DNA of 54,042 nt from the IMG/VR virus record IMGVR_UViG_3300032272_000017, positions 1 through 54,042 of that record; one strand, given 5' to 3'. The notes below the pieces were generated by a model. That model had not been told where the DNA came from. It searched no databases and saw only the letters and a list, made by a program, of their open reading frames with translations. This stretch comes from a virus. Lineage: Duplodnaviria; Caudoviricetes. Below are positions 1-46,911 of the stretch, in pieces. Both the position numbers and the translations under genes were made by a program. Position 1 is the stretch's first letter, and each line of letters begins with the position of its first letter.

Positions 1-195
1 CTGAAAGAGTTAGTCGGGTACAAGATTGTCGACACAGTAATGACCCCTGACAACGACTCGTATGGGTTCGTGGTTCAGAAGGGCAAAGCAAAGAAAGTAT
101 GCTGGGTCGATTGTGATCCCGAGGGCAACGGCCCCGGGTGGCTTCAGATTGAGGAGAAAGAAGATGTCCAGAAAGACGATGCTCCCCGCTGGTGA
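1..195 (+). CDS. hypothetical phage protein, 5'-truncated (LKELVGYKIV...DPEGNGPGWLQI...)
   Basis: Open frame from base 1 to TGA at 193-195; not in the ORF track; overlaps the next gene's RBS. Confidence 0.7.
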   Translation: MKELVGYKIVDTVMTPDNDSYGFVVQKGKAKKVCWVDCDPEGNGPGWLQIEEKEDVQKDDAPRW

Positions 196-544
196 GTACT
201 ACATAGGCGATCCGTGTTACGTGATCGAAGCTTGGGACGATTTCCTAGAACCATTCTGGAACACTAGCGGCGGCGGAATTTTTGATTTCGATGGCTATGA
301 CTGCTGTGTGTTTCAGACACAGTACGGTGATGGCCGCTACCCGGCTAGTGATGGTAGCTCGCTCCCGGTAGACGCCGGTATCATTGGTGCCATACCCGCT
401 GTCCTCATGACAACTGGCGACTTCGAGGACGGTACTCGCGTATCTTTTAATCGACCCTTTGAGTGCTCCAGAGACGACGACGGACGCCTACACTTCGGAT
501 CATTCAGTGTTATGACTGGAGACGGGCATGACGACTATTATTGA
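164..544 (+). CDS. hypothetical phage protein (IGDPCY ... TxYGDG ... VDAG motif family)
   Basis: ORF 62..544; start moved to ATG 164 behind a GAGGAG RBS. Confidence 0.8.
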   Translation: MSRKTMLPAGEYYIGDPCYVIEAWDDFLEPFWNTSGGGIFDFDGYDCCVFQTQYGDGRYPASDGSSLPVDAGIIGAIPAVLMTTGDFEDGTRVSFNRPFECSRDDDGRLHFGSFSVMTGDGHDDYY

Positions 545-803
545 AGAAAAAACCGACACTGAAAAGTGGCGGTGCCCCAAGTGCGGAGTAGTTGGTGCAG
601 ATAATCTTATCTACGCCGAAGACATCTCCGTTTATTACACCTCAGTTACAATCGAAGGCAAGAAGGCTTACGTAGACTGTCCTGACAACGACTACTCATG
701 CCCTACTAACCGACGACTGTTCTGCACAGCATGCGATACATATCATGTCGATGAAGACACTGAACTCGCTGGAACAAGCCTACTGGAGGTACATTACAGA
801 TGA
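528..803 (+). CDS. Zn-finger protein (CPKC ... CTAC)
   Basis: Two CxxC pairs; coupled to the helicase by an ATGA overlap. Confidence 0.75.
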   Translation: MTTIIEEKTDTEKWRCPKCGVVGADNLIYAEDISVYYTSVTIEGKKAYVDCPDNDYSCPTNRRLFCTACDTYHVDEDTELAGTSLLEVHYR

Positions 804-2185
804 CCGGATTTTTTAAGGAGGTTCCACCCTACTATGAACACCAACAAACAACCCTGGACCTATTGGGTCAGGAGAATCGCGTTCTCGATCTATCAGATCC
901 TGGGACTGGTAAAACAAGGCCGGCATTGGGCGCATTTATCGACCGCCTTAACAAGTCGGGGAAAAGAGGTTTGGTACTCGCTACTAAGTCTATTCTACAG
1001 TCTGCGTGGGGTGATGACATCGACAAGTTCTTCCCCGGCGTCAAGTACGACATAGCGTATGCGAATGTCAGAAAGAAAGTTCTTGAGAAGTCTACAGCAG
1101 ACATCCTCATCACAAACCACGACGCAGTTCGAAGCCTTGTGGGTAAGAAAAGTCTGGTTAAGCCTGCTTTCTGGAAAGACTTTGACACTATCATCGTCGA
1201 CGAGTCGACTGCCTTCAAGAATCATGGATCTCAAAGATCGAAAGCACTCTACAACATAGCAAAGCAAATGGAGTACCGGGAGTGCATGACAGGTACGCCG
1301 AATCCGAAATCGATTCTCGACATGTGGCACCAAGCCAAGATCGTCGACGACGGTGTACGGCTAGGCACATCCTACTGGAAGTTCCGGAGCGCTGTTTGTG
1401 AGCCAGTTCAGGTCGGGCCACGTCCCGAGATGACACAGTGGGTCGACAAGGAAGGCTCAGAGTATGCAGTCTTCGACATGCTGGAAGACATTACCATCCG
1501 GCATAAGTTCGAAGAGTGTACTGACATTCCACCGAACTCAGTCACTGAGTATCGTATCGACTTAGCTCCTAAGTTACGCAAGCAGTACAACGACATGGTA
1601 GCTATCGCAGCGACAATGCTTGCAGATGGGAAGTTCCTCATGGCAACGAACGCTGCTAGTGTTCATCAGAAACTCATGCAGATGGCGTCAGGCGCTGTCT
1701 ATACCGAAGAAGGAGAGTACAGTGTATTGGACGACCAACGATCAGAGCTGGTCATGGATCTTATCGAAGAGCGCAATCAATGCCTTGTTGCCTTTAATTG
1801 GCGACATCAGCGAGCGGGCTTGGAGGCAGCGGCCAAAAAGCGTGGATTGTCGTACGCTGTTATTGACGGAAGCGTTAACGATCGCCTGCGACGTGAAGCG
1901 GTCGAGCGATTCCAGAACGGAGAGCTACGAGCTATATTTGCACATCCACAATCCGCGGGTCACGGACTTACCCTTACAGCCGGCACAACAACCATCTGGA
2001 CGTCCCCTACTTATAATGCCGAGCACTACAAGCAGTTCAACCATCGCATCTATCGTTCTGGACAAACTAAGCGCACCGAAACAATACACATAGCTGCGCG
2101 CGACACGATTGATGAAAAGGTCTTTGACAAACTCGGTAGCAAACTCACTTCCATGCAATTATTGCTGGATCTTCTTGAAAAATAA
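800..2185 (+). CDS. SNF2-family (SF2) DNA helicase
   Basis: Walker A DPGTGKT, Walker B IVDES, motif III MTGTP, AGHGLTL, and motif VI QFNHRIYRSGQ. Confidence 0.93.
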   Translation: MTGFFKEVPPYYEHQQTTLDLLGQENRVLDLSDPGTGKTRPALGAFIDRLNKSGKRGLVLATKSILQSAWGDDIDKFFPGVKYDIAYANVRKKVLEKSTADILITNHDAVRSLVGKKSLVKPAFWKDFDTIIVDESTAFKNHGSQRSKALYNIAKQMEYRECMTGTPNPKSILDMWHQAKIVDDGVRLGTSYWKFRSAVCEPVQVGPRPEMTQWVDKEGSEYAVFDMLEDITIRHKFEECTDIPPNSVTEYRIDLAPKLRKQYNDMVAIAATMLADGKFLMATNAASVHQKLMQMASGAVYTEEGEYSVLDDQRSELVMDLIEERNQCLVAFNWRHQRAGLEAAAKKRGLSYAVIDGSVNDRLRREAVERFQNGELRAIFAHPQSAGHGLTLTAGTTTIWTSPTYNAEHYKQFNHRIYRSGQTKRTETIHIAARDTIDEKVFDKLGSKLTSMQLLLDLLEK

Positions 2186-2194
2186 GGATAAATT

Positions 2195-2584
2195 ATGAGC
2201 GAAAATACTAGCCCCCCACTAACAACCAGTGCTATAATTGCCAAGCTCGTAGAGTGTCGCGATGAGAAGCGCCGGATCAAGGAACGTGAGAAGGAGCTCA
2301 TCGAAGAATGGAGAACCCTTGAAATGGAACTCCTAGTGCGGCTCGACGAGCAAGGAATGAAGAAAGCGTCCACCAACGACGGAACGGCAAGTGTGACGGA
2401 AGTTGTACTACCACAAGTTGTGGATTGGGAAGCAGTCTATGCACACATACAAGAGACAGGTGATTTCTATCTGTTACAAAAGCGTCCCGCTGCCGCAGCA
2501 TTCCGAGAACTCAATGATTCAGGAGAAGCTATCCCGGGCATTGAGGCATATACAAAGCGATCAATTTCTCTAAGGAAAGCATGA
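2195..2584 (+). CDS. conserved phage replication-module protein (coiled coil, C-terminal GEAIPG)
   Basis: ORF track, AAGGA RBS, position between helicase and putative SSB. Confidence 0.75.
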   Translation: MSENTSPPLTTSAIIAKLVECRDEKRRIKEREKELIEEWRTLEMELLVRLDEQGMKKASTNDGTASVTEVVLPQVVDWEAVYAHIQETGDFYLLQKRPAAAAFRELNDSGEAIPGIEAYTKRSISLRKA

Positions 2585-3285
2585 TGAGTAAAAAGAAAGA
2601 AGAGTCAGAAAACCTTCCGATCAGTGTCGAAGACATGATCAAGAAGCAACTGCTTGACCAACGCGGCCAACTCGGCGCACTCCCATCCAACAAGATCGGC
2701 CTACGCAATAAAGAATTCACTCTCCCTGATGGGCAGAAGAGTCCTGGTCCGTTGGATTGCATCATCCTCGATTTTGCATGGTTCATGGTTCACTACCCCG
2801 GCGTATACAACTCGAACAATCCGCAGCAGCCTAACTGCTTCGCGACTGGACGAGAGAAGCCAGACGGTGGTGACCTCAAACCACATGAAAGTGCAGCAGA
2901 GCCACAAGGTGAAAACTGCGCAGTATGTCCGAAGAACCAATGGGGCTCAGCTCCCACTGGACGTGGCAAGGCTTGTAAGAACCAGCGTCGTCTGATTCTT
3001 GTGCCGCCCAACTTCGACGAGTCCACCGAACCAATGACGATGTATGTCTCTCCCGGTGGCTTGAAGAACTTCGACAAGTACGTATCACGACTGAACAACG
3101 AACAGGGTGTGCTGCCAGTACAGGTAGTCACATCGATCTCGTTCGATGCTGATCAGTCTTATCCGCTGCTCAAGTTCGCTTTCGTAGAACGACACACTCG
3201 CGTCAATGACGCATGGTCGTTGCGTGAGCGCTCTGAGTCTCTCCTGTTCCGTGAGTTGGAAACGAAAGGCGAGAAAGCAGCATAA
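2581..3285 (+). CDS. putative ssDNA-binding/annealing protein with Cys (Zn) cluster
   Basis: C...CAVCPKNQWGS...GKACKNQRRL signature typical of phage replication-module proteins; function inferred from context. Confidence 0.6.
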   Translation: MMSKKKEESENLPISVEDMIKKQLLDQRGQLGALPSNKIGLRNKEFTLPDGQKSPGPLDCIILDFAWFMVHYPGVYNSNNPQQPNCFATGREKPDGGDLKPHESAAEPQGENCAVCPKNQWGSAPTGRGKACKNQRRLILVPPNFDESTEPMTMYVSPGGLKNFDKYVSRLNNEQGVLPVQVVTSISFDADQSYPLLKFAFVERHTRVNDAWSLRERSESLLFRELETKGEKAA

Positions 3286-3401
3286 CGAACCCCAGAAGAG
3301 CTCGTCACAGCAAAAAAGACTTCCTTGCCCTAGGGTAATAATGCCTAAGATGACCGAACAGACGGACGGTGGGATGACAAGGGTGCTGCTCTTCATTTTA
3401 T

Positions 3402-3797
3402 ATGACAGAAAACAGTTTTTGGCAATCTCTGCGTAAGAAACTCATACCGAGAATCTACGCAATGAAAAATCAAGCCGGCTACGTCGGAGGGATACCTGAC
3501 TGTTGGCTGTCCGGATCTCATGGTGACCTATGGATGGAAAACAAGTATTTACAGACCGTTCCCCCGGTAGTGGATCCGACAAAACTGCTTTCTATGTTAC
3601 AGCAGCAGTGGTTGATCCGCCGGCACGCGGAGGGAAGGTCCGTCGGTGTATTGATTGGGTCGTCGGAGGGGCATTTGTTCTTGCCTGGCTTGTCGTGGCA
3701 AGAGCCTGTGAGCCGTGGCAGCTTCACGATGAAAGCCAAGACGACGAAAGAAATTGCTGACGAATTGGTTGAACTTGTGGGCTGCACGCAGGTATAA
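3402..3797 (+). CDS. PD-(D/E)xK nuclease, VRR-NUC / Holliday junction resolvase-like
   Basis: MTE..F N-terminus, GIPD ... WMENK catalytic motif, QQQW. Confidence 0.8.
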   Translation: MTENSFWQSLRKKLIPRIYAMKNQAGYVGGIPDCWLSGSHGDLWMENKYLQTVPPVVDPTKLLSMLQQQWLIRRHAEGRSVGVLIGSSEGHLFLPGLSWQEPVSRGSFTMKAKTTKEIADELVELVGCTQV

Positions 3798-3798
3798 T
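3769..3798 (+). promoter_or_regulatory. sigma70-like promoter TTGAAC-18-TATAAT; probable leaderless transcript for the SspA-like gene; contains an inverted CAGCCC box
   Basis: Perfect TATAAT at 3793-3798, ATG 7 nt downstream at 3806, no SD. Confidence 0.6.
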
Positions 3799-3805
3799 AG
3801 CCCCT

Positions 3806-4273
3806 ATGGAACCAACAATCGTAATCGACAACAGCCTAGACTCATTCCTGATTCACTGGCTCGTCCTAGAGAAAGAATGTCCCTTAGCGGTTCAGTACAG
3901 CTTACTCTCCGAAGTGAAAGCACCGTACTACCAAGCTGGGGATGTATTGATCTACGACGCTGTTACCCTTGTTCAGTTCCTACAGGAGCGATACCCCGGT
4001 GAACAACTCCTGCCAGCTGATCCAGTGTCACGTGCGCAAATACGACAAGCGTGTGCGCTCATAAATGAGCCAGACGTCGACATGATTGCCGAACTTGAGG
4101 AGATCCTCGGCACAGGCAGTAATTACATTGCTGGTAGGGAGTTCACACTCTTAGACATCTACATTGGAACGTGGCTGTCGGAGTATGTGTTGACGAACAT
4201 TGTCACCGCATCGGTAGGCTCATATTGGAGACGGATTTCCAGCCGACCAGCATTTATTAAGGCATCACAATGA
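3806..4273 (+). CDS. GST-fold protein resembling stringent starvation protein A (SspA)
   Basis: LVLEK, LIYDAVTLVQFLQERYP..LLPADPVSRAQIR, YIAGREFTLLDIY, YWRRISSRPAF parallel the SspA/GST motifs (YLDERFP.PPLMP..PVAR, YFLSDEFSLVDC, YMTRVFERDSF). Confidence 0.75.
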   Translation: MEPTIVIDNSLDSFLIHWLVLEKECPLAVQYSLLSEVKAPYYQAGDVLIYDAVTLVQFLQERYPGEQLLPADPVSRAQIRQACALINEPDVDMIAELEEILGTGSNYIAGREFTLLDIYIGTWLSEYVLTNIVTASVGSYWRRISSRPAFIKASQ

Positions 4274-4530
4274 CAGAAGAACTGCCACGAGGCATTTGGT
4301 ATGAGGCGCCTAAGCGCCGATTCCGAGTTAGAAAGTACCACAACGGTGTATCGTATCTGAAAGGATACTTCCGCACATTCGACGATGCGAAAGAAGCTCT
4401 TATTGAGCTGGAGTCGTATCTTTCTACCATTCCGAAGGAACGCAAGAAGCGAGAGAGCTCGTCGCCGCCTGACCCGACTTTGTCTGGCACCGCGAGATCC
4501 ATTCGGTCAAGAGAAAAACACAGAATTTGA
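4270..4530 (+). CDS. small AP2-like DNA-binding protein
   Basis: PRGIWYEAPKRRFRVRKYHNG..YLKGYFRTFDDAKEA fits the AP2 three-strand plus helix pattern; ATGA-coupled to the SspA-like gene. Confidence 0.65.
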   Translation: MTEELPRGIWYEAPKRRFRVRKYHNGVSYLKGYFRTFDDAKEALIELESYLSTIPKERKKRESSSPPDPTLSGTARSIRSREKHRI

Positions 4531-4542
4531 CCTGGAGGTAGA

Positions 4543-4731
4543 GTGAAATTTGAAAAGTACGAGGTGATCCCACTCAAGGATCATGCCAATCCGGTGCAAT
4601 GCGAAACACGCAACGCGCAGTTTTGGGGTCTGTACGGAATCGACAAGAACGACGATGCATATGCGGTCGGTGATTTCAGTTCCAAGACAGACGCAGAGTT
4701 CATAAAAGACGCTATTCAAGCGTCACCTTAA
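4543..4731 (+). CDS. hypothetical protein
   Basis: GGAGG RBS then GTG start; 62 aa. Confidence 0.7.
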   Translation: MKFEKYEVIPLKDHANPVQCETRNAQFWGLYGIDKNDDAYAVGDFSSKTDAEFIKDAIQASP

Positions 4732-4757
4732 CCGACTCCCCCCTGTCGGTATGCTTG

Positions 4758-4781
4758 GGCCCCCTTGTGGGGCCTTTTTTT
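4758..4781 (+). terminator. intrinsic terminator
   Basis: GGCCCC-cttgt-GGGGCC followed by T7. Confidence 0.85.
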
Positions 4782-4796
4782 ATTGGAGCGATATGT

Positions 4797-5402
4797 ATGG
4801 ATGTACTTGTAGGATGCGAGTACTCAGGAATCGTGAGAGATGCTTTTCTCGATGCTGGGCACTATGCGCTGTCGTGCGATATTTTACCGACAGAGAGCGA
4901 TAAGGGTGACCACTGGCACGGAGATATATTCGAGTGCTTGCGGAATACAGATTCATGGGATCTGATAATTCTGCACCCGCCATGTACACACCTCTGCGTT
5001 AGCGGAAACAGGTGGTACGGCAAAGGGCAAGAAGGTCACGATAAGAGACTGAAAGCGATTGAGTGGACCAAACAGCTATATAGAGCTGCAACACAGAAGG
5101 CAGTCCACGTCGCAATAGAAAACCCAGTAGGAGTGCTGTCGTCAGAATGGCGACCACCAGAACAATATGTGCAGCCATGGCAATACGGTATTCAGGAAAT
5201 GAAGAAGACCGGCTTGTGGCTGACACCCGGGCTACCGTTATTACAGCCCACTAGAATCATCACGCCGCCAAAACCGGATGATCCGGATTATTTAGCGTGG
5301 CAGAGGGTGTGGAGAATGCCCCCGGGACCAAATCGGGGCAAAGAGCGATCGCGATTCTTTCCCGGAATTGCGAAGGCAATGGCGGAGCAGTGGTCGTGGT
5401 AG
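4797..5402 (+). CDS. DNA cytosine-methyltransferase-like protein (short phage type)
   Basis: VLVGCEYSG, WDLIILHPPC (catalytic PC), IENP, QPWQYG, KKTGLW, RSRFFPGIAKAMAEQW; start moved to ATG 4797 after GGAG. Confidence 0.8.
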   Translation: MDVLVGCEYSGIVRDAFLDAGHYALSCDILPTESDKGDHWHGDIFECLRNTDSWDLIILHPPCTHLCVSGNRWYGKGQEGHDKRLKAIEWTKQLYRAATQKAVHVAIENPVGVLSSEWRPPEQYVQPWQYGIQEMKKTGLWLTPGLPLLQPTRIITPPKPDDPDYLAWQRVWRMPPGPNRGKERSRFFPGIAKAMAEQWSW

Positions 5403-6100
5403 TTTACGAGGGACCGTCGGAATTGAATGGTGCGCCTATCGTTGCCATTGTAACGGGGTTGGTTACCCCTTCGACAAACCGCAAGACTGGACCAATGGCT
5501 CAGCTGTGGATCCTCGATGCGACCACTGAGCCGCACGTTGCTGTTAAGACAGGTGAGGATGAGTCAGTATGTGGCGACTGTCCAGCTCGTAACAAATGGT
5601 GTTACGTGACTACCTTCCAAGGGCCACTCTCAATATATAGGACATGGAAACGTGGAGGATACCAAAGATATGTTCCCGAAGATGAGCAATCATTACTCGA
5701 TGGCACGGTTCTCAGATTCGGTGCCTACGGAGATCCAGCTGCAGTCCCTATTGAAGTCATTCGAGGCATCGGTAGGCGAGTACGTCGTTTTACTGGTTAC
5801 ACCCACGCCTGGAAGTACTGCGATAGCGAATTTCGACACTACTGTATGGCCAGCGTGGATACGATCAGCGATCAGCAACAAGCTGCTCGAAGCGGGTGGC
5901 GTACGTTCAGAGTGGCCTCTCCAGATTCTCCAAAACGAAAAGGGGAATCCATATGTCCTGCCAGTGAAGAAGCAGGACATAAAATCAACTGCTACGACTG
6001 CGGAGCCTGCGACGGAAGGCGACGACCCAAAGTAAAATCACACATAGTTATTCAGGCGCACGGCGCCAAAACAAAGCGATACTTGGAAGAGTTCGCATAA
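5396..6100 (+). CDS. Cys-rich conserved phage protein, possibly Fe-S/radical-SAM-like
   Basis: NRKTG, CGDCP....CY, LRFGAYGDP, TGYTH, CPA...C..CGAC; start moved to GTG 5396 behind GGAG. Confidence 0.6.
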   Translation: MVVYEGPSELNGAPIVAIVTGLVTPSTNRKTGPMAQLWILDATTEPHVAVKTGEDESVCGDCPARNKWCYVTTFQGPLSIYRTWKRGGYQRYVPEDEQSLLDGTVLRFGAYGDPAAVPIEVIRGIGRRVRRFTGYTHAWKYCDSEFRHYCMASVDTISDQQQAARSGWRTFRVASPDSPKRKGESICPASEEAGHKINCYDCGACDGRRRPKVKSHIVIQAHGAKTKRYLEEFA

Positions 6101-6111
6101 GGAGAAGTATC

Positions 6112-7086
6112 ATGGCACATGAAATTGATTTCAGCACAGGGCAAGCTGCGATTGCCTACACCGGCCGCGTCCCATGGCATGGGTACGGCGAGCCAATGCA
6201 AGACAACCTACCACTCGAAGTGTGGCGCCAGATGGCCGGCCTTGATTGGGAAGTGGAAGAGAAGCCTGTCTTTTACAAGACAGACGACTTGGGACAGGCA
6301 TACCTGTCAGCGATCCCCAAGAAGAAGGTGTTGGTCCGTAGTGACAATTCACAGCCCCTTTCTGTAGTCTCTGACCGCTACAAGGTTGTCCAACCGAAGG
6401 AAGTCCTCGACTTCTTTGAGTCCGTGATCAAAGAGAACGGGTTCAAGATGTCCACAGCTGGTGCTCTCAGAGATGGCAAACGAGTTTGGGCCATGGCTGA
6501 CACCGGCGAAGGCTTCCAGATCGAGAACGGTGACCGAGTAGGAGCGCATCTTCTACTAGCAACCAGCTACGACGGTACGTTCGCTACGACTGCTCAGTTC
6601 ACGTCGATCAGGGTCGTCTGCAACAACACACTCGGCTTCAGTCTGAACCGCGGTGGTGAAGGCGGCATCGTACGCATCCCGCATACGTCTGACTTCAACC
6701 AGTGGGATATCAAAGCCGATCTTGGATTCGATTCCAGCTGGAGCAACTTCAAGAAGAACATCTTCGAGCTGTCTCAGCACAAAGTCACTAAGCGCGAAGC
6801 ACTGAATTACTTCTTGACAGTGATGGGAGTCACCGAGGAAGAAGCTGCAGACGGTAAGCAGTTGTCCAACGTGAAGAAGTTGATCAGTCTCTACGAATCA
6901 GGACCAGGTTCTAAGTTACCAAGCTCACAGAACACTCTGTGGGGAGCTTTGAACGCGGTAACCTTCATGGTAGATCACTGTCGTGCTGCAAAGAACACGG
7001 GCAACCGGTTCGATTCAGCATCGTTCGGAGGCGGCGCCAACTTGAAGCGTGAAGCATTCAAGGAAGCTGTCCGGATTGCAGCATAA
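6112..7086 (+). CDS. DUF932 family protein
   Basis: MAHE, PWHGYG, AGLDWEV, VVSDRYKVVQ, TSYDG, RVVCNNT, TLWGALNAVT. Confidence 0.9.
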   Translation: MAHEIDFSTGQAAIAYTGRVPWHGYGEPMQDNLPLEVWRQMAGLDWEVEEKPVFYKTDDLGQAYLSAIPKKKVLVRSDNSQPLSVVSDRYKVVQPKEVLDFFESVIKENGFKMSTAGALRDGKRVWAMADTGEGFQIENGDRVGAHLLLATSYDGTFATTAQFTSIRVVCNNTLGFSLNRGGEGGIVRIPHTSDFNQWDIKADLGFDSSWSNFKKNIFELSQHKVTKREALNYFLTVMGVTEEEAADGKQLSNVKKLISLYESGPGSKLPSSQNTLWGALNAVTFMVDHCRAAKNTGNRFDSASFGGGANLKREAFKEAVRIAA

Positions 7087-7262
7087 TGTCTATCCCAGTC
7101 GACAGCTACGAATGCCGGCGCTGTAAGGAGTGGTCGCATTACGAGGCAAGGGAGAGTCTACGAAGACTTCCCGAATACTGTCCGTACTGCGGCGACCGCC
7201 AACTTCGTTGGAAGACGGATCAAAATTGGGAACTACAGGAGAAGCTCGATGGGAGCACATAG
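7086..7262 (+). CDS. 58-aa Zn-ribbon protein (YECRRC ... CPYCG), not in ORF track
   Basis: ATG overlaps the DUF932 stop (TAATG); MSIPVDSYECRRCKEWSHYEARESLRRLPEYCPYCGDRQLRWKTDQNWELQEKLDGST. Confidence 0.75.
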   Translation: MSIPVDSYECRRCKEWSHYEARESLRRLPEYCPYCGDRQLRWKTDQNWELQEKLDGST

Positions 7263-7548
7263 TTTTACAGCAAGTGTCTACGCACCGACAGCCGCAGACG
7301 GGTACAGTATGCTCGTCGACGAAGCTGTCTATGACCACGGTCACGACCCGTACAACGGTACGATCAGCACAACGAGCGGGTTCAAGATAGTTCCGTTCAT
7401 GGAAGGAGAATCCTCCGAACAGTGGTCGGAACGAGTGCTGGACATAACTGAGAAGCGGGGAAGCTGTGCCTGTATCGAGGCGACTCACGTCGAGAAGAAC
7501 GACGAGGGGTGGCCACTCTGGCACTTCGCGGGATGGGCAGCATCATGA
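7249..7548 (+). CDS. hypothetical phage protein (YDHGHDPYNGTIST motif)
   Basis: AGGAG RBS; ORF track. Confidence 0.8.
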   Translation: MGAHSFTASVYAPTAADGYSMLVDEAVYDHGHDPYNGTISTTSGFKIVPFMEGESSEQWSERVLDITEKRGSCACIEATHVEKNDEGWPLWHFAGWAAS

Positions 7549-7928
7549 TTCACATGTCAGCATACAGATTACTCCGCGTGAAGAACGGGCAACCACACAC
7601 GCTTTTCCACGGTCATAATGGTAGCCGGAAGCTGCCGCAGGATACTCTCCTAGAAGCCGTAGAGAAGCAGGTGTGGAACCCCGGGAAGAAGGGCAAGTCA
7701 CCCGGGTTCACGTCCGGGTGGCATGTTCTCCCCACAAAGGAGCAATGCGTTAAGTACCTAGAACGGTTCACTGCGAAGGACGACATCGTCGTCTGTCGTG
7801 TGACCATAGCGGAGCCTCGCTACAAGCCGCGTTCGAAAGTGTTTTTAACAAAATACATGAAGATCGACGCGGTTGATTGGGCAATAGCATTGGAGGAACA
7901 TGGCCATGTCCCAACCAACACGTTTTGA
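7545..7928 (+). CDS. hypothetical protein
   Basis: ATGA overlap with the upstream gene; TLFHGHNGSRKLP. Confidence 0.75.
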   Translation: MIHMSAYRLLRVKNGQPHTLFHGHNGSRKLPQDTLLEAVEKQVWNPGKKGKSPGFTSGWHVLPTKEQCVKYLERFTAKDDIVVCRVTIAEPRYKPRSKVFLTKYMKIDAVDWAIALEEHGHVPTNTF

Positions 7929-8157
7929 AGTACAAGAGTACACCGTCGTCGATGGCTGGATAAACAACTGGTCGGTGGAGATTCCCATTCATATTGACGA
8001 GTGGGTCACGAGGCCGCAGACGTACGCGACCGCGGACGAAGCACAGGCAGCAATCTATGAGTTCTTCGCTGACCTGACACGAGCCGGTATGGTGCAGTCA
8101 TACGACATGTCAGATTATCGGGTCGTTCCCATTGCATATGGGGCTGCAAACAAGTAA
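7906..8157 (+). CDS. hypothetical protein
   Basis: GGAGG RBS 9 nt upstream of ATG 7906. Confidence 0.75.
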   Translation: MSQPTRFEVQEYTVVDGWINNWSVEIPIHIDEWVTRPQTYATADEAQAAIYEFFADLTRAGMVQSYDMSDYRVVPIAYGAANK

Positions 8158-8257
8158 AATCGTTACAAATCAACGAGTCTCCCGGGTAGGGTTTTTTCAT
8201 TCTCCTTTCACCTACACGGTTGTCCACCACCGGGAGGCTCACCTTTTAGGAATAGCT

Positions 8258-8518
8258 ATGAGAGAACTGTTGGATAAGATTCGCGAAGAAGAAGCAGCAA
8301 ACAACGGTGGATCTACAAATTATTACGAGTTGCCGGAAGGCGCCTCGGAATTACAGGACTTGATCGAGTACAAAAATATGAACTTTGCTGTTGCAAATAT
8401 CTTCAAAGCTGCGTATAGATTAGGTTCTAAAGGTAATACAACGCCCGAATATGATCTCAACAAGATCATATGGTTTGCAGAAAGAGAGAAGGCCAGGATA
8501 CTTAATGAAAAGATTTAA
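8258..8518 (+). CDS. DUF3310-like protein (T7 gp1.7 nucleotide-kinase-like family)
   Basis: GGSTNYY, NFAVANIFKAAYRLGSK, DLNKIIWF. Confidence 0.7.
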   Translation: MRELLDKIREEEAANNGGSTNYYELPEGASELQDLIEYKNMNFAVANIFKAAYRLGSKGNTTPEYDLNKIIWFAEREKARILNEKI

Positions 8519-8717
8519 GATCACATTGATGGTTCCACACTCTACGGAGATCGTCGTTGCCTCTATGCAGGAAGCGCATAACGAAGCAACACGACTCGCT
8601 GGTGGAGACGTTGCTGATGGACCGAAGGCAATGGTCCACTCGGTAGAAGAGATCGGAGACATCCAAACAGATCCAATCCCATTCGGTGACCCAGAGATAG
8701 AATTTCCACCAGAATAA
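8505..8717 (+). CDS. hypothetical protein
   Basis: ATG 8505 after AGGA; overlaps the upstream gene end. Confidence 0.65.
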   Translation: MKRFKITLMVPHSTEIVVASMQEAHNEATRLAGGDVADGPKAMVHSVEEIGDIQTDPIPFGDPEIEFPPE

Positions 8718-8782
8718 ACTATACATAATCTGGTATACTCTTTTCTTTATTCACAACATAAGCCCGTGGGCAGGAGTTTAGA

Positions 8783-9121
8783 ATGTTTGTAGGACAAGAC
8801 GGATTACCCAAGACCAAACTGAAGTGGACAGCGCCAACGCTCAACACAGATGGCTCTGCGATCACTCAGTCTCTGACGTATACTTTGTACCGCTGGGTGA
8901 ATGGCGCACCTTTCGCAGTCCTCTCGTTCCCCGGAACGCTTAATCCCGACGGGCAGTACGAGTTCTTGCTAGAAGACATTGCCTCATTCAACACAGACGG
9001 TGTGTATACGTTGAGCCTCACAGCTTCAGATGAAGATGGCGACGAATCAGACCACTCGAACACCATCGAGGTCACAAGAGCAATGGCCCCTTTGGCACCA
9101 ACAGGGTTTGGCTTGGAATAG
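8783..9121 (+). CDS. stand-alone fibronectin type III domain protein
   Basis: LKWTAP..NTDGS, YTLY, GVYTLSLTASDEDGDESDHSN, APLAPTG; AGGAG RBS. Confidence 0.75.
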   Translation: MFVGQDGLPKTKLKWTAPTLNTDGSAITQSLTYTLYRWVNGAPFAVLSFPGTLNPDGQYEFLLEDIASFNTDGVYTLSLTASDEDGDESDHSNTIEVTRAMAPLAPTGFGLE

Positions 9122-9161
9122 CCGCCCTACTTTTTTTAATTTTACTATGGAGCCCGTGGGC

Positions 9162-9410
9162 ATGAGTTACATTACATTCGACTATCAGTGCAGCAACTGC
9201 GATAAAGCAGCCCCCAACATGATGGTCCGCCGCAGCGAGATGAACAACGTAGAATGCGACGAGTGTGGTGCGCTAATGAAACGGATGCCCGCGGCGCCTA
9301 TCACTACGTTCAAGTTTGGTGATAGGTCAGCACAAAAAGGTCGGAAACAAGTCAGCCTGCGCGACCCCAATCCTGGGGCCGGCAAGTTCAGCGACACGAA
9401 AGATATCTAG
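9162..9410 (+). CDS. FmdB-like Zn-ribbon protein
   Basis: FDYQCSNC ... VECDECG.LMKR..AAP. Confidence 0.75.
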   Translation: MSYITFDYQCSNCDKAAPNMMVRRSEMNNVECDECGALMKRMPAAPITTFKFGDRSAQKGRKQVSLRDPNPGAGKFSDTKDI

Positions 9411-12079
9411 CTGGTAGCTCTCGTCAGGTCTCTAGTCAAACCACGTGGGCTTGATGCGATTCCTGATGCGGGGTCTGAATACGTTCCGTTTGAGATCTCA
9501 GCTATCGAGCTCAGTGCATTCTCGTAGACTTTCACTTCCTGCAAGAACCCATCGAGCTGATTGACGTCGTTCCAATCTGAGCCGAGGTTGAACTGCGTAA
9601 ACGTAGGCATCGTAGCGGCCGTGTCCGGAGTGCCTTCGACTACCCCATTGAGGTACATCTGTACGTCGTTGGTGTCGTAGTAGATCGCTACTTCGTACGT
9701 CGTGTCATCTGCTATCGTCGTTGCGCCAGTTACAGTTGCCTGTGTAGCGCCACCATCGACGACCGTCAGAACCAAGTTGCTTGACGTATCAATCGCGAGC
9801 TCGATGCGCTCGTTGGCAGTGCCATCCGACAGCGAGAGGATCGTCTTCTGGTCGTAACCCACACCACGTGTTGTCTGGAACTTCGCGTAGATCAGACCGC
9901 CGCTTGTGGGTATGCCAGTTACATCAGCTGTTGTCAGTATGTCAGCAGCACGTGTCCCTGTGGCACTAGCCGACGACATAATAGGAGTGTTGATATAACC
10001 CTTCGTAAGGTTGACGTCAGTTATATACATTCTTGCGGTAGTATCATCGTAGGCAAACACATCATCCAAGTCATCTTCGGCTGCGCCTAGAACCACCGTC
10101 GCAGTAGTGTCGGCCGCGTCGCCGGTAAAACTGATGCGGGTCGTAGATGTCGCCTCTTCTCGCTCTATATATTGTCCGTAGTACCCGATACTTTCCTCAG
10201 TACATCCAGCTGTGGTGCCGAACGCTGGTACACTACCCGTCGCGTAAGCCCCGTTGTCTGAGTATGCACTGATCGTTAAGGCCCCCAGATTAGTAATCTG
10301 TGCCCGAGTCCACTGAACCCCTCCATAAATGGCCGGGATGCCAAGTGCTGAATACTGCAACTCGTACCGCTCGCTAGTTTCCAGCGTGACAGCTTGTGAA
10401 ACAGCAAGCACCCCAGTACCACCCCCGGAACCGTTCTTTAGCTGCATCGTACCATGTATAAGCTTCGGAGAAGCAACCGTGCCGCTGGTAAACAACGTCC
10501 CACTACCATCGTTGGTCCAGTCAGTCAGGGTGATCCTGTCACTAGACTGTATTAAGTTTGTCTGAGTCCTCTCAATACGAAGCCCTCTCGGAGCAGGACT
10601 CTCACGCCAACCGGGGATTAATTCTTGGCCGACTCCAGTCCACGTCCATCCGCTGTTCGGTATCGGTGGGTTCGGTATGTCAGAAGTAGACCAGTCGCCC
10701 CAAAGTATAGTCGGCGCACTCCAAGTGAAGTCGCCGGTGTCGTTCGTACCATTGGCTCCCAACCCCATGCGTATAGTTCCTGAAACCCCAGCCATCTGGA
10801 CTACTAACTTGATCCAACCGTTAGCATCAGCGTCACCGATCACAGCGGTTGTACCGTCGGGTGTCGTAGCGCCAGTCCAATCATGGATAGAAAGCACCGG
10901 TTGAGACGGTGCTGTCACTGTGTCATCAATATGCATAGCGATCGTATACGTCTGGTTGTACGCGAACGCACCCATATCACCTGGAGTAGACACAAGCCAA
11001 TACTGCTGGGCAGTACCGGAGCAACGGACGCCGTTCATATACTGTTCTGTGTCACCCGCACCTCGATTGCTAAACCGACCGAAGGAGTTCTTAGCGGAAG
11101 CACTCGCGAACGGAGAATCGGTAACCGCACCGTCTCCTGTTGTAGTTCCTTCCGCCCAGCCGTAGGCGCCAGACCAGCCTATCCCATCCGGTGCAGTCCC
11201 TTTTCCCGCGTACCCATGCATTTCGGAGTTCAGTTGTACGTTCGTAACTGGCTGCTGGCGCGCATACGCCATACCCATCGTGGTATCAGTTGATGGCACG
11301 TAATAATTCGGGGGCTCATATATCCAAAACCCCGACGTCTTCATCATGGAAGGGCGACATACAAGCATAGTGCGTCCGCTACCAGTATGTCCGGAAGGAA
11401 CGTCTTCTTGAGCAGCTGTGTTCGAAAATCCAAAAACGAGGTTGTCTCTAGTGGTGGTAGAAGCAGCGCCTTGGACCATCACCTTCGTCCAACCATTACC
11501 AGCGTCTGCAAACACGAGCTCATGGTCGGCATCATTATACTGCGGTGGGTATTGAGCGAAGTAGCCGGTGTAGTACTCAGCAGAGTCGACAACTGTCTGA
11601 CTTGCTAAATCGAGTACACAGATTGTTGTAGGAGCTGCGCTGCCTGCGTAACCTATGAATGCGTACTGCGCTGGGTTGGTTCCGCCATGCTTAAACCACA
11701 CTTCAGTAGTGACCGAGACTCTCCCATCATACTTTCCATATATGCCGGAGTCTTGATTTAGCGAGTGGAAGCCAGTGGTGGTGTCTTCCTGAAGCATCCA
11801 AGCCGTGTCTCCGCCGAACGGGTCTGAGTAGCCAGTCACTGGTGTTTCGAGCCCGTCGTTTGTCCAGTTTGCGTGCGCTAGGTTCTCACTACTGAGAAGA
11901 AAGTTATGGATCGCCCAGCCTCCATGGAAGCGTGGGAAGTCGTCATCATGAAATACCCATGTTCCTTGGATGTCTTCTTCCCACGCAACAGATGCGCGCG
12001 AGAATGACAGCGCTGGTCCTCTACGGACGTTAAGCTGGTCGTGTAAGAAGTCGTATGCTGCTTTAAGCTGAATAGCCAA
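9407..12079 (-). CDS. 890-aa virion spike/fibre protein with C-terminal LamG (concanavalin-like) domain
   Basis: FSRAS, NFLLSSE, GLRIERTQTNLI, TRAAD, and a LamG-like C-terminus (MYLNG ... LGSD ... LDGFLQEVKVY). Confidence 0.75.
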   Translation of the reverse strand: MAIQLKAAYDFLHDQLNVRRGPALSFSRASVAWEEDIQGTWVFHDDDFPRFHGGWAIHNFLLSSENLAHANWTNDGLETPVTGYSDPFGGDTAWMLQEDTTTGFHSLNQDSGIYGKYDGRVSVTTEVWFKHGGTNPAQYAFIGYAGSAAPTTICVLDLASQTVVDSAEYYTGYFAQYPPQYNDADHELVFADAGNGWTKVMVQGAASTTTRDNLVFGFSNTAAQEDVPSGHTGSGRTMLVCRPSMMKTSGFWIYEPPNYYVPSTDTTMGMAYARQQPVTNVQLNSEMHGYAGKGTAPDGIGWSGAYGWAEGTTTGDGAVTDSPFASASAKNSFGRFSNRGAGDTEQYMNGVRCSGTAQQYWLVSTPGDMGAFAYNQTYTIAMHIDDTVTAPSQPVLSIHDWTGATTPDGTTAVIGDADANGWIKLVVQMAGVSGTIRMGLGANGTNDTGDFTWSAPTILWGDWSTSDIPNPPIPNSGWTWTGVGQELIPGWRESPAPRGLRIERTQTNLIQSSDRITLTDWTNDGSGTLFTSGTVASPKLIHGTMQLKNGSGGGTGVLAVSQAVTLETSERYELQYSALGIPAIYGGVQWTRAQITNLGALTISAYSDNGAYATGSVPAFGTTAGCTEESIGYYGQYIEREEATSTTRISFTGDAADTTATVVLGAAEDDLDDVFAYDDTTARMYITDVNLTKGYINTPIMSSASATGTRAADILTTADVTGIPTSGGLIYAKFQTTRGVGYDQKTILSLSDGTANERIELAIDTSSNLVLTVVDGGATQATVTGATTIADDTTYEVAIYYDTNDVQMYLNGVVEGTPDTAATMPTFTQFNLGSDWNDVNQLDGFLQEVKVYENALSSIAEISNGTYSDPASGIASSPRGLTRDLTRATS

Positions 12080-12923: not shown

Positions 12924-12952
12924 ATTCTACCTTTACAGGAGAGGGGCTGCGA
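12924..12952 (-). promoter_or_regulatory. candidate late promoter TCGCAG-CCCC..(17)-TAGAAT
   Basis: Shares GCAGCCCCTCTCC with the 16494-16522 element; upstream of 12898. Confidence 0.6.
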
Positions 12953-13615: not shown

Positions 13616-13806
13616 ATTGGTTTGGCCATGCAGGCTTCTTCCCTGCCCTTCTCAAAGCCCTGTCGGGCACCGTTCTGCCACCCTTGGGTGTATCCTTCTT
13701 GCAGCCCAGTATTATATCCCATCCGAGTGATTTTCTCACCCGTCATGTACATGGCGTACACGATCAGTATGAAGGTGAAGACAGCTCTAGTCTTCGAAGG
13801 TTTCAT
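13612..13806 (-). CDS. small membrane protein with GxxxG repeats (GYNTGLQEGYTQGWQNG)
   Basis: Internal ATG of ORF 13612..13941; one TM segment. Confidence 0.6.
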   Translation of the reverse strand: MKPSKTRAVFTFILIVYAMYMTGEKITRMGYNTGLQEGYTQGWQNGARQGFEKGREEACMAKPI

Positions 13807-16493: not shown

Positions 16494-16522
16494 ATTATCC
16501 CTTATAGGGAGAGGGGCTGCAA
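16494..16522 (-). promoter_or_regulatory. candidate late promoter TTGCAG-CCCC..(17)-GATAAT
   Basis: Intergenic, 17-bp spacer, shared box. Confidence 0.6.
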
Positions 16523-16861: not shown

Positions 16862-16889
16862 AGTGTATATACTCATGCGAGGGCTGCAA
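16862..16889 (-). promoter_or_regulatory. candidate late promoter TTGCAG-CCC..(16)-TACACT
   Basis: Immediately after the stop of the 2108-aa gene; predicted +1 falls at or next to ATG 16855. Confidence 0.5.
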
Positions 16890-27042: not shown

Positions 27043-27071
27043 AGTTTAACTTGGGAACCTGTGGGCTGTCA
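27043..27071 (-). promoter_or_regulatory. candidate late promoter TGACAG-CCC..(17)-TAAACT
   Basis: Intergenic upstream of the ejection-protein block; shares the CAGCCC box. Confidence 0.55.
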
Positions 27072-27302
27072 CGCCGCTGCCTTCTCTGAGACTTCCTTCG
27101 TATCCGGTTTGGGGTTTTCACCCTCACCTTCAACAGAAGCGCAAACTACGAGCTCACCGCTGATTAAACCGCGGATGAGCGTCTTACCAGATACTACCCC
27201 GTCGATTAAGTTAGCCGGGATGGAGACGCTCTCGTCTGAGAGTACGGCTAGGAGTATATGAGCGGCCTGTTGTACCTGTTCTTGACTGACTGGCTGAAAC
27301 AT
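27069..27302 (-). CDS. hypothetical protein (possible fibre chaperone)
   Basis: AGGA RBS; ORF track. Confidence 0.7.
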   Translation of the reverse strand: MFQPVSQEQVQQAAHILLAVLSDESVSIPANLIDGVVSGKTLIRGLISGELVVCASVEGEGENPKPDTKEVSEKAAA

Positions 27303-27362
27303 TATTATTTCCTGTAAGTTATTGGCTAACGGGGCTATGTTACCACGAGAAACCCTGTGTTG

Positions 27363-45743: not shown

Positions 45744-45982
45744 ACTTCGTTCCTTAAAGAGTCTACACGTTCGGCTGGGCTAACCTGACTCACGCACGTG
45801 TGCATTGAGAACATGTTGCCACCGTACATTATTGATTGTTCGTTGTGAACCTCGTCGCCGCTCATGAGGGCCAGGAAACTCACTTCGATGAATTCTGCCA
45901 CCGTGATCTTGTCGAGATTCTTCCCCGCTTCGACCGATTCGATTATATATTTTGTTCTATCGCTTAATGTCGTAACGGTCAT
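45740..45982 (-). CDS. hypothetical protein
   Basis: 3' part of ORF 45740..46492; internal ATG avoids a long overlap with the HNH gene. Confidence 0.65.
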   Translation of the reverse strand: MTVTTLSDRTKYIIESVEAGKNLDKITVAEFIEVSFLALMSGDEVHNEQSIMYGGNMFSMHTCVSQVSPAERVDSLRNEV

Positions 45983-46604
45983 AAATTCCCTGCAGTGCCT
46001 CGGCGACGTCGTCGTGTGAGTAATGGTCTTGCTGGATGATTGTATGCTTTCTGTGACAATTCGCGCAAATGACACGACACTTACGAATTTCTTGTCGAAG
46101 CCTCTCGCTTGCCCAACTATAACCGTCGGAGAGGAGTTTTCCGACCTTATCGAACTTCTGAGACGGGTCAATGTGATCAAACTCCAAAACGCGTGGGTCG
46201 CGCGTGCCACAGTCGCAGCAACCTTTCTCGGCCACGTATTCGAGCGCTTTAATCCGGACTGCTCGACGCGCTTTGCGCTTATATGATGCGGCATCTGATC
46301 TGATATCAGCGGCTGTCCTTTTGCGAGCCCTCTTTCTAGGCTTTCGAACAGGCTGGAAGTCCGGGTCGACCTCGACAGCATTAGGTGCCCTGAGGCATTC
46401 CTTACAATCTTTTCTGTATCGCTTTGGATCGGCGGCACGTTTTTTCCTCCAGTTTCCTTGGAAAGAGAAATCTGCGAAACGCTTGGTAACACCGCACGTC
46501 GCGCATTCCTTGAAGTTGTGGAACTTATCTAGATGCTTCTGGCGCGGCGGCTTCGCCGAACCCCGGCCGTACTTTATCTTCGGTGCATCCGTAGATGAAG
46601 TCAT
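45957..46604 (-). CDS. HNH endonuclease with N-terminal Zn finger
   Basis: KECATC..CKEC; CCDCG..DPRVLEFDHIDP ... EIRKCRVICANCHRKH. Confidence 0.88.
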   Translation of the reverse strand: MTSSTDAPKIKYGRGSAKPPRQKHLDKFHNFKECATCGVTKRFADFSFQGNWRKKRAADPKRYRKDCKECLRAPNAVEVDPDFQPVRKPRKRARKRTAADIRSDAASYKRKARRAVRIKALEYVAEKGCCDCGTRDPRVLEFDHIDPSQKFDKVGKLLSDGYSWASERLRQEIRKCRVICANCHRKHTIIQQDHYSHDDVAEALQGIYDRYDIKR

Positions 46605-46611
46605 TAGGGGC

Positions 46612-46911
46612 TTATTTACCGGCTTTCTGATACGTTATTGCTTCCGTCGCGTCTCGACGTATCTGTGCAGCTGGTGAGTACTCACGCCACAGTTCGAGTA
46701 GTAGGTTCATTGGGTGCTGATCCGCAGCATACGCAAAGAACATCTTCGCTGTGTGACCCTGCATCTGAAACGGCCAGATCTTATAGACGTAGTCGCCTGC
46801 TGCGAGCATGTCGCCCTCAGACTCTGGAACGATGCGGACGTTGCCCGCTTCCGGACCACCCACGAACAGTATTTTGTTACCGTTCCTTATGTTTTTCGTG
46901 TTCTCAGCCAT
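46612..46911 (-). CDS. hypothetical protein (FVGGP motif)
   Basis: ORF track; RBS. Confidence 0.7.
   Translation of the reverse strand: MAENTKNIRNGNKILFVGGPEAGNVRIVPESEGDMLAAGDYVYKIWPFQMQGHTAKMFFAYAADQHPMNLLLELWREYSPAAQIRRDATEAITYQKAGK

Follow-up and report, generated by a model that had tools for sequence, protein, structure and literature searches.

Within IMG/VR virus record IMGVR_UViG_3300032272_000017, a linear stretch of 54,042 bases that is rated ~70% complete and was analysed here at its full length (hereafter the window), three small plus-strand genes follow one another and encode a 155-amino-acid (aa) protein with a truncated glutathione S-transferase (GST) fold, an 86-aa protein with an AP2-like domain and a 62-aa protein (Table 1). 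The phage is an uncultured one from sediment, and the genes sit in its early/DNA-metabolism arm, where the plus strand of positions 1–9400 carries DNA-metabolism genes, including a helicase (800–2185) and a DNA methyltransferase (4797–5402), as well as PHROG families without an assigned function. A sequence-only reading of this DNA had proposed that the first two genes make up a self-contained switch for late transcription, with a phage-encoded SspA-like protein coupled to a DNA-binding activator. Herein we arrive at a different reading, which we put forward tentatively as a real possibility: the three genes would form one unit in which a non-enzymatic GST-fold module from the SspA neighbourhood of the GST superfamily is paired with an AP2-like partner that controls the unit itself.

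The two leading open reading frames (ORFs) and their ATGA coupling are present just as the sequence-only reading had described them. We compared 32 related loci, of which L002 and L028 lie on the same contig, L011/L012 and L026/L027 are near-identical pairs, and L003 is nearly identical to the window (98.4–100% protein identity over six genes). All loci have the same gene order, namely a 234-aa gene, the 131-aa gene, the GST-like gene, the AP2-like gene, the 62-aa gene and the methyltransferase gene. The AP2-like gene lies downstream of the GST-like gene in 29 of the 30 loci with room for it, and the stop/start overlap between the two is kept in 21 of 21 loci, with a spacing of -4 nucleotides (nt) in 17 loci, -11 nt in three and -7 nt in one (in which the start call was off). 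In 24 of 25 loci a hairpin and T run come after the 62-aa gene, with stems that differ between loci yet stay complementary. This terminator and the conserved DNA upstream of the first gene delimit a discrete unit from 3769 to 4785, with a transcript that would start at or next to the A of the first ATG.

Table 1 Features of the three-gene unit and related sites, in window positions.
Feature	Position	Strand	Basis or remark
Upstream gene, 131 aa	3402..3797	+	phrog_35651, E 8e-8; phrog_2165 'DNA helicase', E 4e-6
-35-like hexamer TTGAAC	3769..3774	+	Kept in some relatives only (TTGACT, TTGAAC); absent from the largest group
Conserved box TGTGGGCTG (reverse complement CAGCCCACA) in the promoter spacer	3776..3784	+	Alignment of relatives
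-10 hexamer TATAAT	3793..3798	+	A-11 (position 2) and T-7 (position 6) invariant in 21/21 upstream sequences
GC-rich AGCCCC(T/C) between -10 and ATG	3799..3805	+	AGCCCC invariant in 21/21 aligned upstream sequences
Truncated GST-fold protein, 155 aa, ATG start	3806..4273	+	Sequence and profile comparison
AP2-like-domain protein, 86 aa, ATG start	4270..4530	+	Overlaps the stop of the GST-like gene by ATGA at 4270-4273
Third gene, 62-aa protein, GTG start behind GGAGG	4543..4731	+	phrog_23974, E 4.7e-5
Predicted intrinsic terminator (GC hairpin and T run) closing the unit	4757..4785	+	24/25 loci
GGGCTGCAAACAAGTAAAAT, a weaker relative of the promoter element that runs across the stop codon of ORF 7900..8157	8132..8160	+	Resembles the box-to--10 part
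13-of-14 match to the -35/spacer region (3771-3784)	27055..27068	+	Directly past the stop of a 77-aa minus-strand ORF, 27069..27302
Over-represented motif (T)TGCAGCCC(C)	12938-12950, 16508-16520, 16881-16889, 8141-8149	-	Motif counts
Same motif	13699-13707	+	Motif counts

Conserved DNA upstream of the GST-like gene

The divergent 3' end of the 131-aa gene holds both the -35-like hexamer and the conserved box, and the TAA stop of this gene lies within the -10 hexamer. The TTGAAC-18-TATAAT arrangement that the sequence-only reading had taken as a promoter is indeed present (3769–3798) and matches 10 of the 12 consensus positions. It is the best of the seven promoter-like sites in positions 1–10000, a number that is not above chance (shuffle mean 8.8). 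As the hexamer ends 7 nt before the ATG, its position is compatible with a start of transcription at the A of this codon or beside it. Across the 21 aligned upstream sequences, A-11, T-7, AGCCCC and ATG are all invariant; the hexamer occurs in relatives as TATAAT, AATAAT, TAAAAT, TAAAGT and TAATAT, at a distance of 7 nt from the ATG in 21 of 23 rows and of 6 nt in the remaining two.

Further upstream, 8–9 nt before the hexamer, the related loci carry a GGGCT(G) box. Since the relatives read this box in at least two different frames of the variable tail of the upstream gene (as 'LWA' in 11 rows and 'VGC' in four), it is conserved at the DNA level, and the conservation of the DNA before the ATG as a whole exceeds what the upstream gene's coding tail would account for. 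Four loci carry CAGCCCCC, in the opposite orientation, in place of the TGTGGGCTG-type box. An RNA hairpin between GGGCU and AGCCC around the stop and start codons was considered as the reason for this conservation and rejected, because it is no better than in shuffled sequences (z -0.84) and the four loci with the reversed box lack it.

No Shine-Dalgarno (SD) sequence precedes the ATG of the GST-like gene. The sequence hallmarks of a leaderless start are found here, namely a -10 element with A-11 and T-7, a distance of 6–8 nt to the start codon and the lack of an SD, and judged from this arrangement the mRNA of the unit is probably leaderless or nearly so. GC-rich discriminators are typical of stringently controlled promoters, and by analogy the C-rich stretch at 3799–3805 could tie the expression of the unit to host ppGpp.

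A pattern search that included the site at 8132–8160 gave two matches against 0.06 expected, and a sequence model scored this site at 10.1 bits (E 0.11), as the only sibling of the element in the window and a weak one; the related loci end before it. The pattern AGCCCCY-N0-2-ATG occurs twice against 0.29 expected. At 46602–46625 (minus strand), TAAATAAGCCCCTAATG leads into an HNH endonuclease gene (45957..46604; phrog_2255, E 1.5e-24) and provides an A/T hexamer and AGCCCCT as at the GST-like gene. At 27331–27348 (minus strand), TAACAT and then AGCCCC are found ~30 nt upstream of the 77-aa minus-strand gene, a weak match to the model (E 2.1). As for the upstream gene itself, its 131-aa product resembles a PD-(D/E)XK nuclease (IPD ... 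ENK) as judged from the translation only, and phrog_35651 is a family of unknown function.

Relationship of the 155-aa protein to SspA and to enzymatic GSTs

In a set of 5.8 billion proteins we found 77 relatives of the 155-aa protein (118–194 aa), all of them from metagenome assemblies and seven of them labelled 'glutathione S-transferase' by JGI. A tblastn search of 50,697 cultured phage records gave zero matches, the species genomes gave one weak generic GST only, and the viral collection gave one related contig for the family and zero for the intermediates described below. In a profile search of 1.84 billion representatives, nine family clusters were retrieved at E <=1e-30, followed by a gap and then by 1257 proteins at E <=1e-3. 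Curated models fit the protein poorly: in Pfam, GST_C_2 alone matched, at 21 bits and thus below its cut-off of 24.9, and no GST_N model matched, whilst the NCBIfam models maiA, SspA and FzlA matched far below their cut-offs, with 22.2 bits (E 7.5e-5; 15.6 bits in the genome search) for the SspA model NF007016 against a cut-off of 314 bits.

Among solved structures in the PDB, SspA comes first. A single-sequence search (phmmer) ranked two Burkholderia SspA entries, 4qq7 and 6v91, as best (1e-9), and with the family profile both reached 6e-15, followed by RegF, Yersinia, E. coli and Francisella SspA at 1.6e-12 to 2.4e-7, with the generic GSTs 4iel, 4dej, 4kdu and 3qav interleaved with SspA at ~1e-12. 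The order differs when sets of sequences are compared by hhalign, in which the family aligned with 13 GSTs that have the 'ES' (Glu-Ser) motif and lack the PHP (Pro-His-Pro) motif of SspA at 99.7% (E 3.6e-27, score 168.6), and with 20 PHP proteins at 99.4% (E 2.1e-21, score 136), the latter below the non-PHP GST set. The comparison of SspA with enzymatic GSTs, which the sequence-only reading had named as a check, is thus split, with SspA at the top of the PDB list and the non-PHP GSTs scoring at least as well in hhalign.

To characterize the surroundings of the family, we aligned 99 of the 141 matches listed outside it (mostly 170–236 aa; 42 were omitted). Their consensus is an SspA consensus, with PHP in 51 of the 99 and with 20 that fall outside the pattern altogether. 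NCBIfam labels of these relatives do not discriminate (SspA 97, maiA 99, FzlA 94), and the same is true of the Atlas feature matches, all ~0.92 across GST, MglA_C, FzlA and RNA polymerase (RNAP)-associated clusters. In a quick maximum-likelihood tree (110 rows, unrooted), the family forms a single clade (support 100) whose sisters are short metagenomic proteins of 152–196 aa, P0085, P0087 and P0086 and then P0091, which has PHP; the family and its sisters lie inside a 20-row clade (support 99) that is separate from the other 90 rows. These short intermediates link the family to SspA-like proteins. A cluster look-up of nine intermediates gave metagenome clusters of one or two members, one of which is named (JGI 'glutathione S-transferase') and all of which come without genomic context.

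According to excerpts of the published work on E. coli SspA, PHP (P84-H85-P86), R65, R82, F83 and Y92 make contacts to sigma70 region 4 and beta', and alanine changes impair binding (PMC7515715). Part of this surface has counterparts in the family, which shares an invariant LQERYPG...P.DP..RAQIRQ.C: R82 and P84 correspond to the invariant R62 and P64, and F83 to Y63. What argues against an SspA is the core of the motif, since P84-H85-P86 aligns to P64-G65-(E/I)66, in which all 21 aligned members keep P64 and G65, so that His85, which lies in the groove of sigma70 region 4, is replaced by an invariant Gly and Pro86 by Glu or Ile. In addition, R65 aligns with G46, and Y92 aligns with D72, a position at which the aligned Burkholderia SspA also has Asp. 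The loss of PHP suggests that any contact of the 155-aa protein with RNAP would have to be a new one.

The enzymatic side of the fold is eroded as well. GSTs carry out glutathione chemistry with a catalytic Ser, Cys or Tyr at the start of helix 1 and a Glu-Ser pair, and the alpha2 stretch helps to hold glutathione. The family has S, G, T, L or D in the column where the GST set has its catalytic Ser, and Y-D-x (A/H/P...) where GSTs and SspA have 'ES', and deletions have removed ~12–18 residues at the alpha2 position and ~22–31 in the C-terminal helical domain. From the varying catalytic column, the replaced 'ES', the two deletions and the loss of PHP we infer that the 155-aa protein has been pared down to a non-enzymatic module with a GST fold, which comes from the SspA neighbourhood and is not a member of the SspA family. 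The label 'SspA-like' given by the sequence-only reading is supported by the GST fold, by SspA as the best solved relatives and by the PHP-bearing half of the near relatives, and the lost motif and the 22 versus 314 bits speak against it.

Two other functions for the protein have to be weighed against a binding module. It may be a redox or glutathione-dependent enzyme, or a thiol protein acting through Cys25 and Cys83, that is unrelated in function to the AP2-like protein and stands next to it by inherited gene order. Such an enzyme would account for the higher hhalign score of the non-PHP 'ES' GST set, for the JGI name on 7 of the 77 relatives, for the wholly syntenic six-gene block, and for the cysteines themselves, as Cys25 is nearly invariant and Cys83 invariant, a possible sign of thiol chemistry. 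At the Cys25 site, C-P-C is found in P0085 and P0086, the nearest relatives beyond the family, and a thiol or metal role is possible there. We nevertheless regard an enzyme as unlikely, given the variable catalytic column, the replaced 'ES', the deleted alpha2 stretch and the sub-threshold Pfam GST match, as well as a stop/start overlap with the AP2-like gene that all 21 loci keep.

The loss of the RNAP-contact motif in a descendant of the SspA neighbourhood would also suit a decoy, in which the PHP-less SspA derivative pairs with host SspA, in the way that MglA does with SspA, or competes against it, and removes or redirects its effect on sigma70-RNAP, with the AP2-like protein as a separate regulator. 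SspA-family proteins form homo- and heterodimers, as excerpts of two studies describe (PMC5630020, PMC7515715), and the 155-aa protein evolves faster than its neighbours, which is typical of host-interaction proteins. The ~22–31 missing residues of the helical domain, however, may remove part of the dimer surface, and a decoy is in our view a long shot.

The 86-aa AP2-like protein

The second protein consists of an AP2-like domain (~residues 5–52) and a conserved basic C-terminal tail, which past residue 52 (IPK.RK.R ... R.R) is conserved across 12 sequences. Its description as AP2-like in the sequence-only reading finds indirect support: phrog_99 'HNH endonuclease' matches residues 7–50 (E 1.3e-5), the four weak tblastn matches in cultured phages all lie within AP2/HNH endonuclease ORFs, and an hhalign comparison with ORF026 of Acaryochloris phage A-HIS1 ('putative AP2-endonuclease') reaches 93.6% probability (E 2.2e-7); in this ORF the aligned part is where Pfam AP2 matches weakly (18.4 bits against a cut-off of 33.3). 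The Atlas lead for the AP2 likeness stands at 0.80. The Pfam AP2 model itself (PF00847), however, matches neither the window protein nor any of the 12 family members at E up to 10, and on these comparisons we rate the AP2 likeness as weak to moderate. In A-HIS1 (L039, 13544–15523) the AP2 ORF lies directly 3' of a DNA methylase gene, and in the window a DNA methyltransferase gene lies two genes past the AP2-like gene, a likeness in gene order that may be coincidence.

Since the named relatives of the 86-aa protein are all HNH/AP2 endonuclease ORFs, the protein could be no transcription factor but a DNA-binding module that remains from a homing-endonuclease system or stands alone within one, with the conserved DNA upstream of the unit serving translation by re-initiation and not transcription. 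The upstream stop codon, at 8 nt from the ATG, would be well placed for this, and the second AGCCCCT(A)ATG gene start of the window belongs to the HNH endonuclease gene. Against this stands that the 86-aa protein is the best conserved of the unit (its median identity to the window protein is 76.5%, and that of the GST-like protein 65.8%), and the invariance of exactly A-11 and T-7 is predicted by a -10 element and not by re-initiation. A search for longer, fused forms of the AP2-like protein found none, which speaks weakly in the same direction. Taken together, we attach little probability to a homing remnant.

A GC-rich motif in the late region

The structural and packaging genes of the window, including those for the portal, the large and small terminase subunits, the major head protein and a virion structural protein, occupy the minus strand from 9407 to ~47500, and coding on the plus strand resumes beyond ~47900. 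The large terminase has its nearest cultured relatives in Aeromonas phage phiA008 (43.5% identity) and Pseudomonas phage KPP25 (35%), whilst positions 2500–6500 of the window gave no DNA matches to the 50,697 phage records. An Rfam search of the window gave zero matches, and the sequencing runs that contain most of the window are labelled as sediment metagenomes.

The sequence-only reading had tied the unit to late transcription through a match between gaacttgtgggctg (3771–3784), which is part of the 3' end of the upstream gene (3402..3797), and gaacctgtgggctg (27055–27068). The two are identical at 13 of 14 positions, both on the plus strand, and the description of the match as inverted relative to transcription is correct because the genes around 27055 lie on the minus strand. 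The match is nonetheless at chance level: 2182 of the 54029 14-mers of the window have a partner at <=1 mismatch (902–992 in three shuffles), and 29% of the 30-nt stretches of the window hold a near-duplicated 14-mer of this kind. A protein scan for relatives of the 27055 locus found none, and one relative's sequence ends inside the adjoining gene. CAGCCC, the core of the proposed boxes, is not enriched either, with 26 occurrences against 24.2 expected, and TGTGGGCTG with <=1 mismatch occurs 8 times against 13.1 expected.

A longer form of the motif is over-represented (Table 1). GCAGCCC occurs 14 times against 6.2 expected and TTGCAGCCC four times against 0.40 expected, counts that 0 of 100 shuffles reach in either case. 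The exact 13-mer GCAGCCCCTCTCC is found twice on the minus strand, in intergenic gaps of the structural cluster, and both copies lie 9–12 nt before a -10-like hexamer (TAGAAT or GATAAT). In the relative G001, whose proteins are ~40–67% identical to those of the window, TTGCAGCCC(C) occurs twice on the late-gene strand (L035, 8827–8835 and 9165–9173, plus strand), against 0.27 expected for TTGCAGCCC (5 of 200 shuffles reach two). By its counts and positions the motif is a candidate late-promoter or operator motif, and since a GC-rich motif stands at promoter-like late sites, the idea of dedicated late promoters in the sequence-only reading gains some footing. The box of the unit shares the 7-mer GCAGCCC with the late motif in the window and only CAGCCC in most relatives, so that a link between the late motif and the promoter of the unit would be thin.

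These results bear on the full model of the sequence-only reading, in which the 155-aa protein would contact the sigma70-RNAP of the host in the manner of SspA and the AP2-like protein would bind CAGCCC-type boxes, for late activation and autoregulation. There are precedents for its logic, as excerpts of the respective studies describe: the DNA-binding activator Lpa of phage P1 acts with host SspA at late promoters (PMC1891329), and the unstructured C-terminal tail of PigR binds MglA-SspA, a GST-fold dimer that holds sigma70 on the core enzyme (PMC5630020, PMC9304144). SspA as the top solved relatives, PHP in most near relatives (51 of 99), the retained R62 and P64 with Y63 in place of F83, the excess of TTGCAGCCC in the window and in G001, and the two late gaps with GCAGCCCCTCTCC all fit this model. 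It is weakened by the substitutions at His85, Pro86 and Arg65, by the short overlap between the operon box of relatives and the late motif, by the chance level of the 27055 match and by the lack of CAGCCC enrichment. Its premise that no phage RNAP or sigma factor is visible holds for the window proteins scanned; the absence of such factors from the phage itself does not follow, because the scan covered a subset of the ORFs and the record is ~70% complete, so that an RNAP or sigma factor may lie outside it. Overall, we consider the full model improbable.

A model of a unit that controls itself

In the reading that we tentatively favour, a sigma70-type -10 element 6–7 nt upstream of the first ATG would drive a leaderless or near-leaderless mRNA. 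The 155-aa protein would be made in a fixed ratio with the AP2-like protein, with which it probably works, as a protein-binding module that is neither an enzyme nor a canonical SspA; the contact would possibly be made via the conserved C-terminal tail of the AP2-like protein, as the tail of PigR does with MglA-SspA. The AP2-like protein, for its part, would probably bind the GC-rich (C)AGCCC(C) boxes on either side of the -10 element and thereby control its own unit.

Several observations weigh against this reading. Direct searches of Pfam and the PDB, with the single sequence and with the profile, gave no credible AP2 match for the 86-aa protein, and the two conserved cysteines of the 155-aa protein discussed above may be a sign of thiol chemistry. 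The adjacency of the GST-like and AP2-like genes is not specific evidence for a partnership, because the whole six-gene block is syntenic in all relatives, and in one short metagenome contig (L025) another ORF, of 41 aa (996–1121), takes the place of the AP2-like gene, through real variation or an error of assembly. In 14 of 17 loci both flanking genes are better conserved than the GST-like protein, and such faster evolution fits a host-interaction protein and also a dispensable one. At the level of translation, 18 of 47 genes have no SD-like motif upstream by a crude count, so that a missing SD is not unusual in this phage, and a read-through transcript with re-initiation 8 nt past the upstream stop could equally translate the first gene.

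A bolder version combines the module with the late motif. In phage T4, the small protein AsiA binds sigma70 region 4 and acts together with the DNA-binding activator MotA, which recognizes a box in place of the -35 element. The late motif TTGCAGCCCC of the window, at about -35 to -26 before -10-like hexamers, resembles this system in its logic, whereas AsiA and MotA have no sequence relationship to the window proteins. By analogy, the unit might be a kit for sigma appropriation, in which the SspA-derived adaptor uses a new, invariant P-G-E surface to dock the tail of the AP2-type protein, redirects host sigma70-RNAP to TTGCAGCCCC-type late promoters with a poor -35, and shuts off its own leaderless operon via the inverted spacer box. 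We mention this scenario as a speculative one, with a probability that we would place lower still than that of the full late-switch model.

The unit can be set beside four known groups of proteins. The 155-aa protein shares with SspA (4qq7, 6v91, 1yy7, 7c97) the two-domain GST fold, a predicted lack of glutathione chemistry and the ..ER(F/Y)P....L.P.DP..RA stretch, and differs from it in length (155 aa versus ~210), in its two deletions, in P-G-(E/I) for PHP and in being phage-encoded and known from metagenomes only. As in MglA-SspA with PigR, a GST-fold, putatively non-enzymatic protein would be paired with a small DNA-binding-like protein that has a conserved tail; the DNA-binding domain here is AP2-like and not a winged helix, and the unit has no second GST-like subunit. 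The pairing of a DNA-binding candidate with an SspA-type protein is likewise analogous to Lpa and SspA in P1, with the difference that P1 borrows the SspA of its host whereas the window phage would carry its own divergent copy. Finally, catalytic bacterial GSTs (4kdu, 4iel) have the fold, a comparable or better profile score, 'DGD' and '(Y)PG/GGE.L.P.DP' in common with the family, which is without the conserved catalytic residue, the 'ES' motif and the alpha2 stretch of these enzymes. In a literature search we found no published phage-encoded SspA derivative; a paper on phage pf16 concerns SspB.

SspA-type proteins have so far been known as host factors that are borrowed by phages (P1) or duplicated by pathogens (MglA). 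If the 155-aa protein does act on transcription, the unit would be a previously unrecognized means by which a phage that lacks a polymerase of its own reprogrammes sigma70-RNAP, and bacterial AP2-type domains would gain a regulatory role outside homing endonucleases. Even otherwise, the family appears, from its alignments, to show a GST fold reduced to a 155-aa binding module, and the unit offers a cleanly bounded set of predicted promoter, operator and terminator for experiments.

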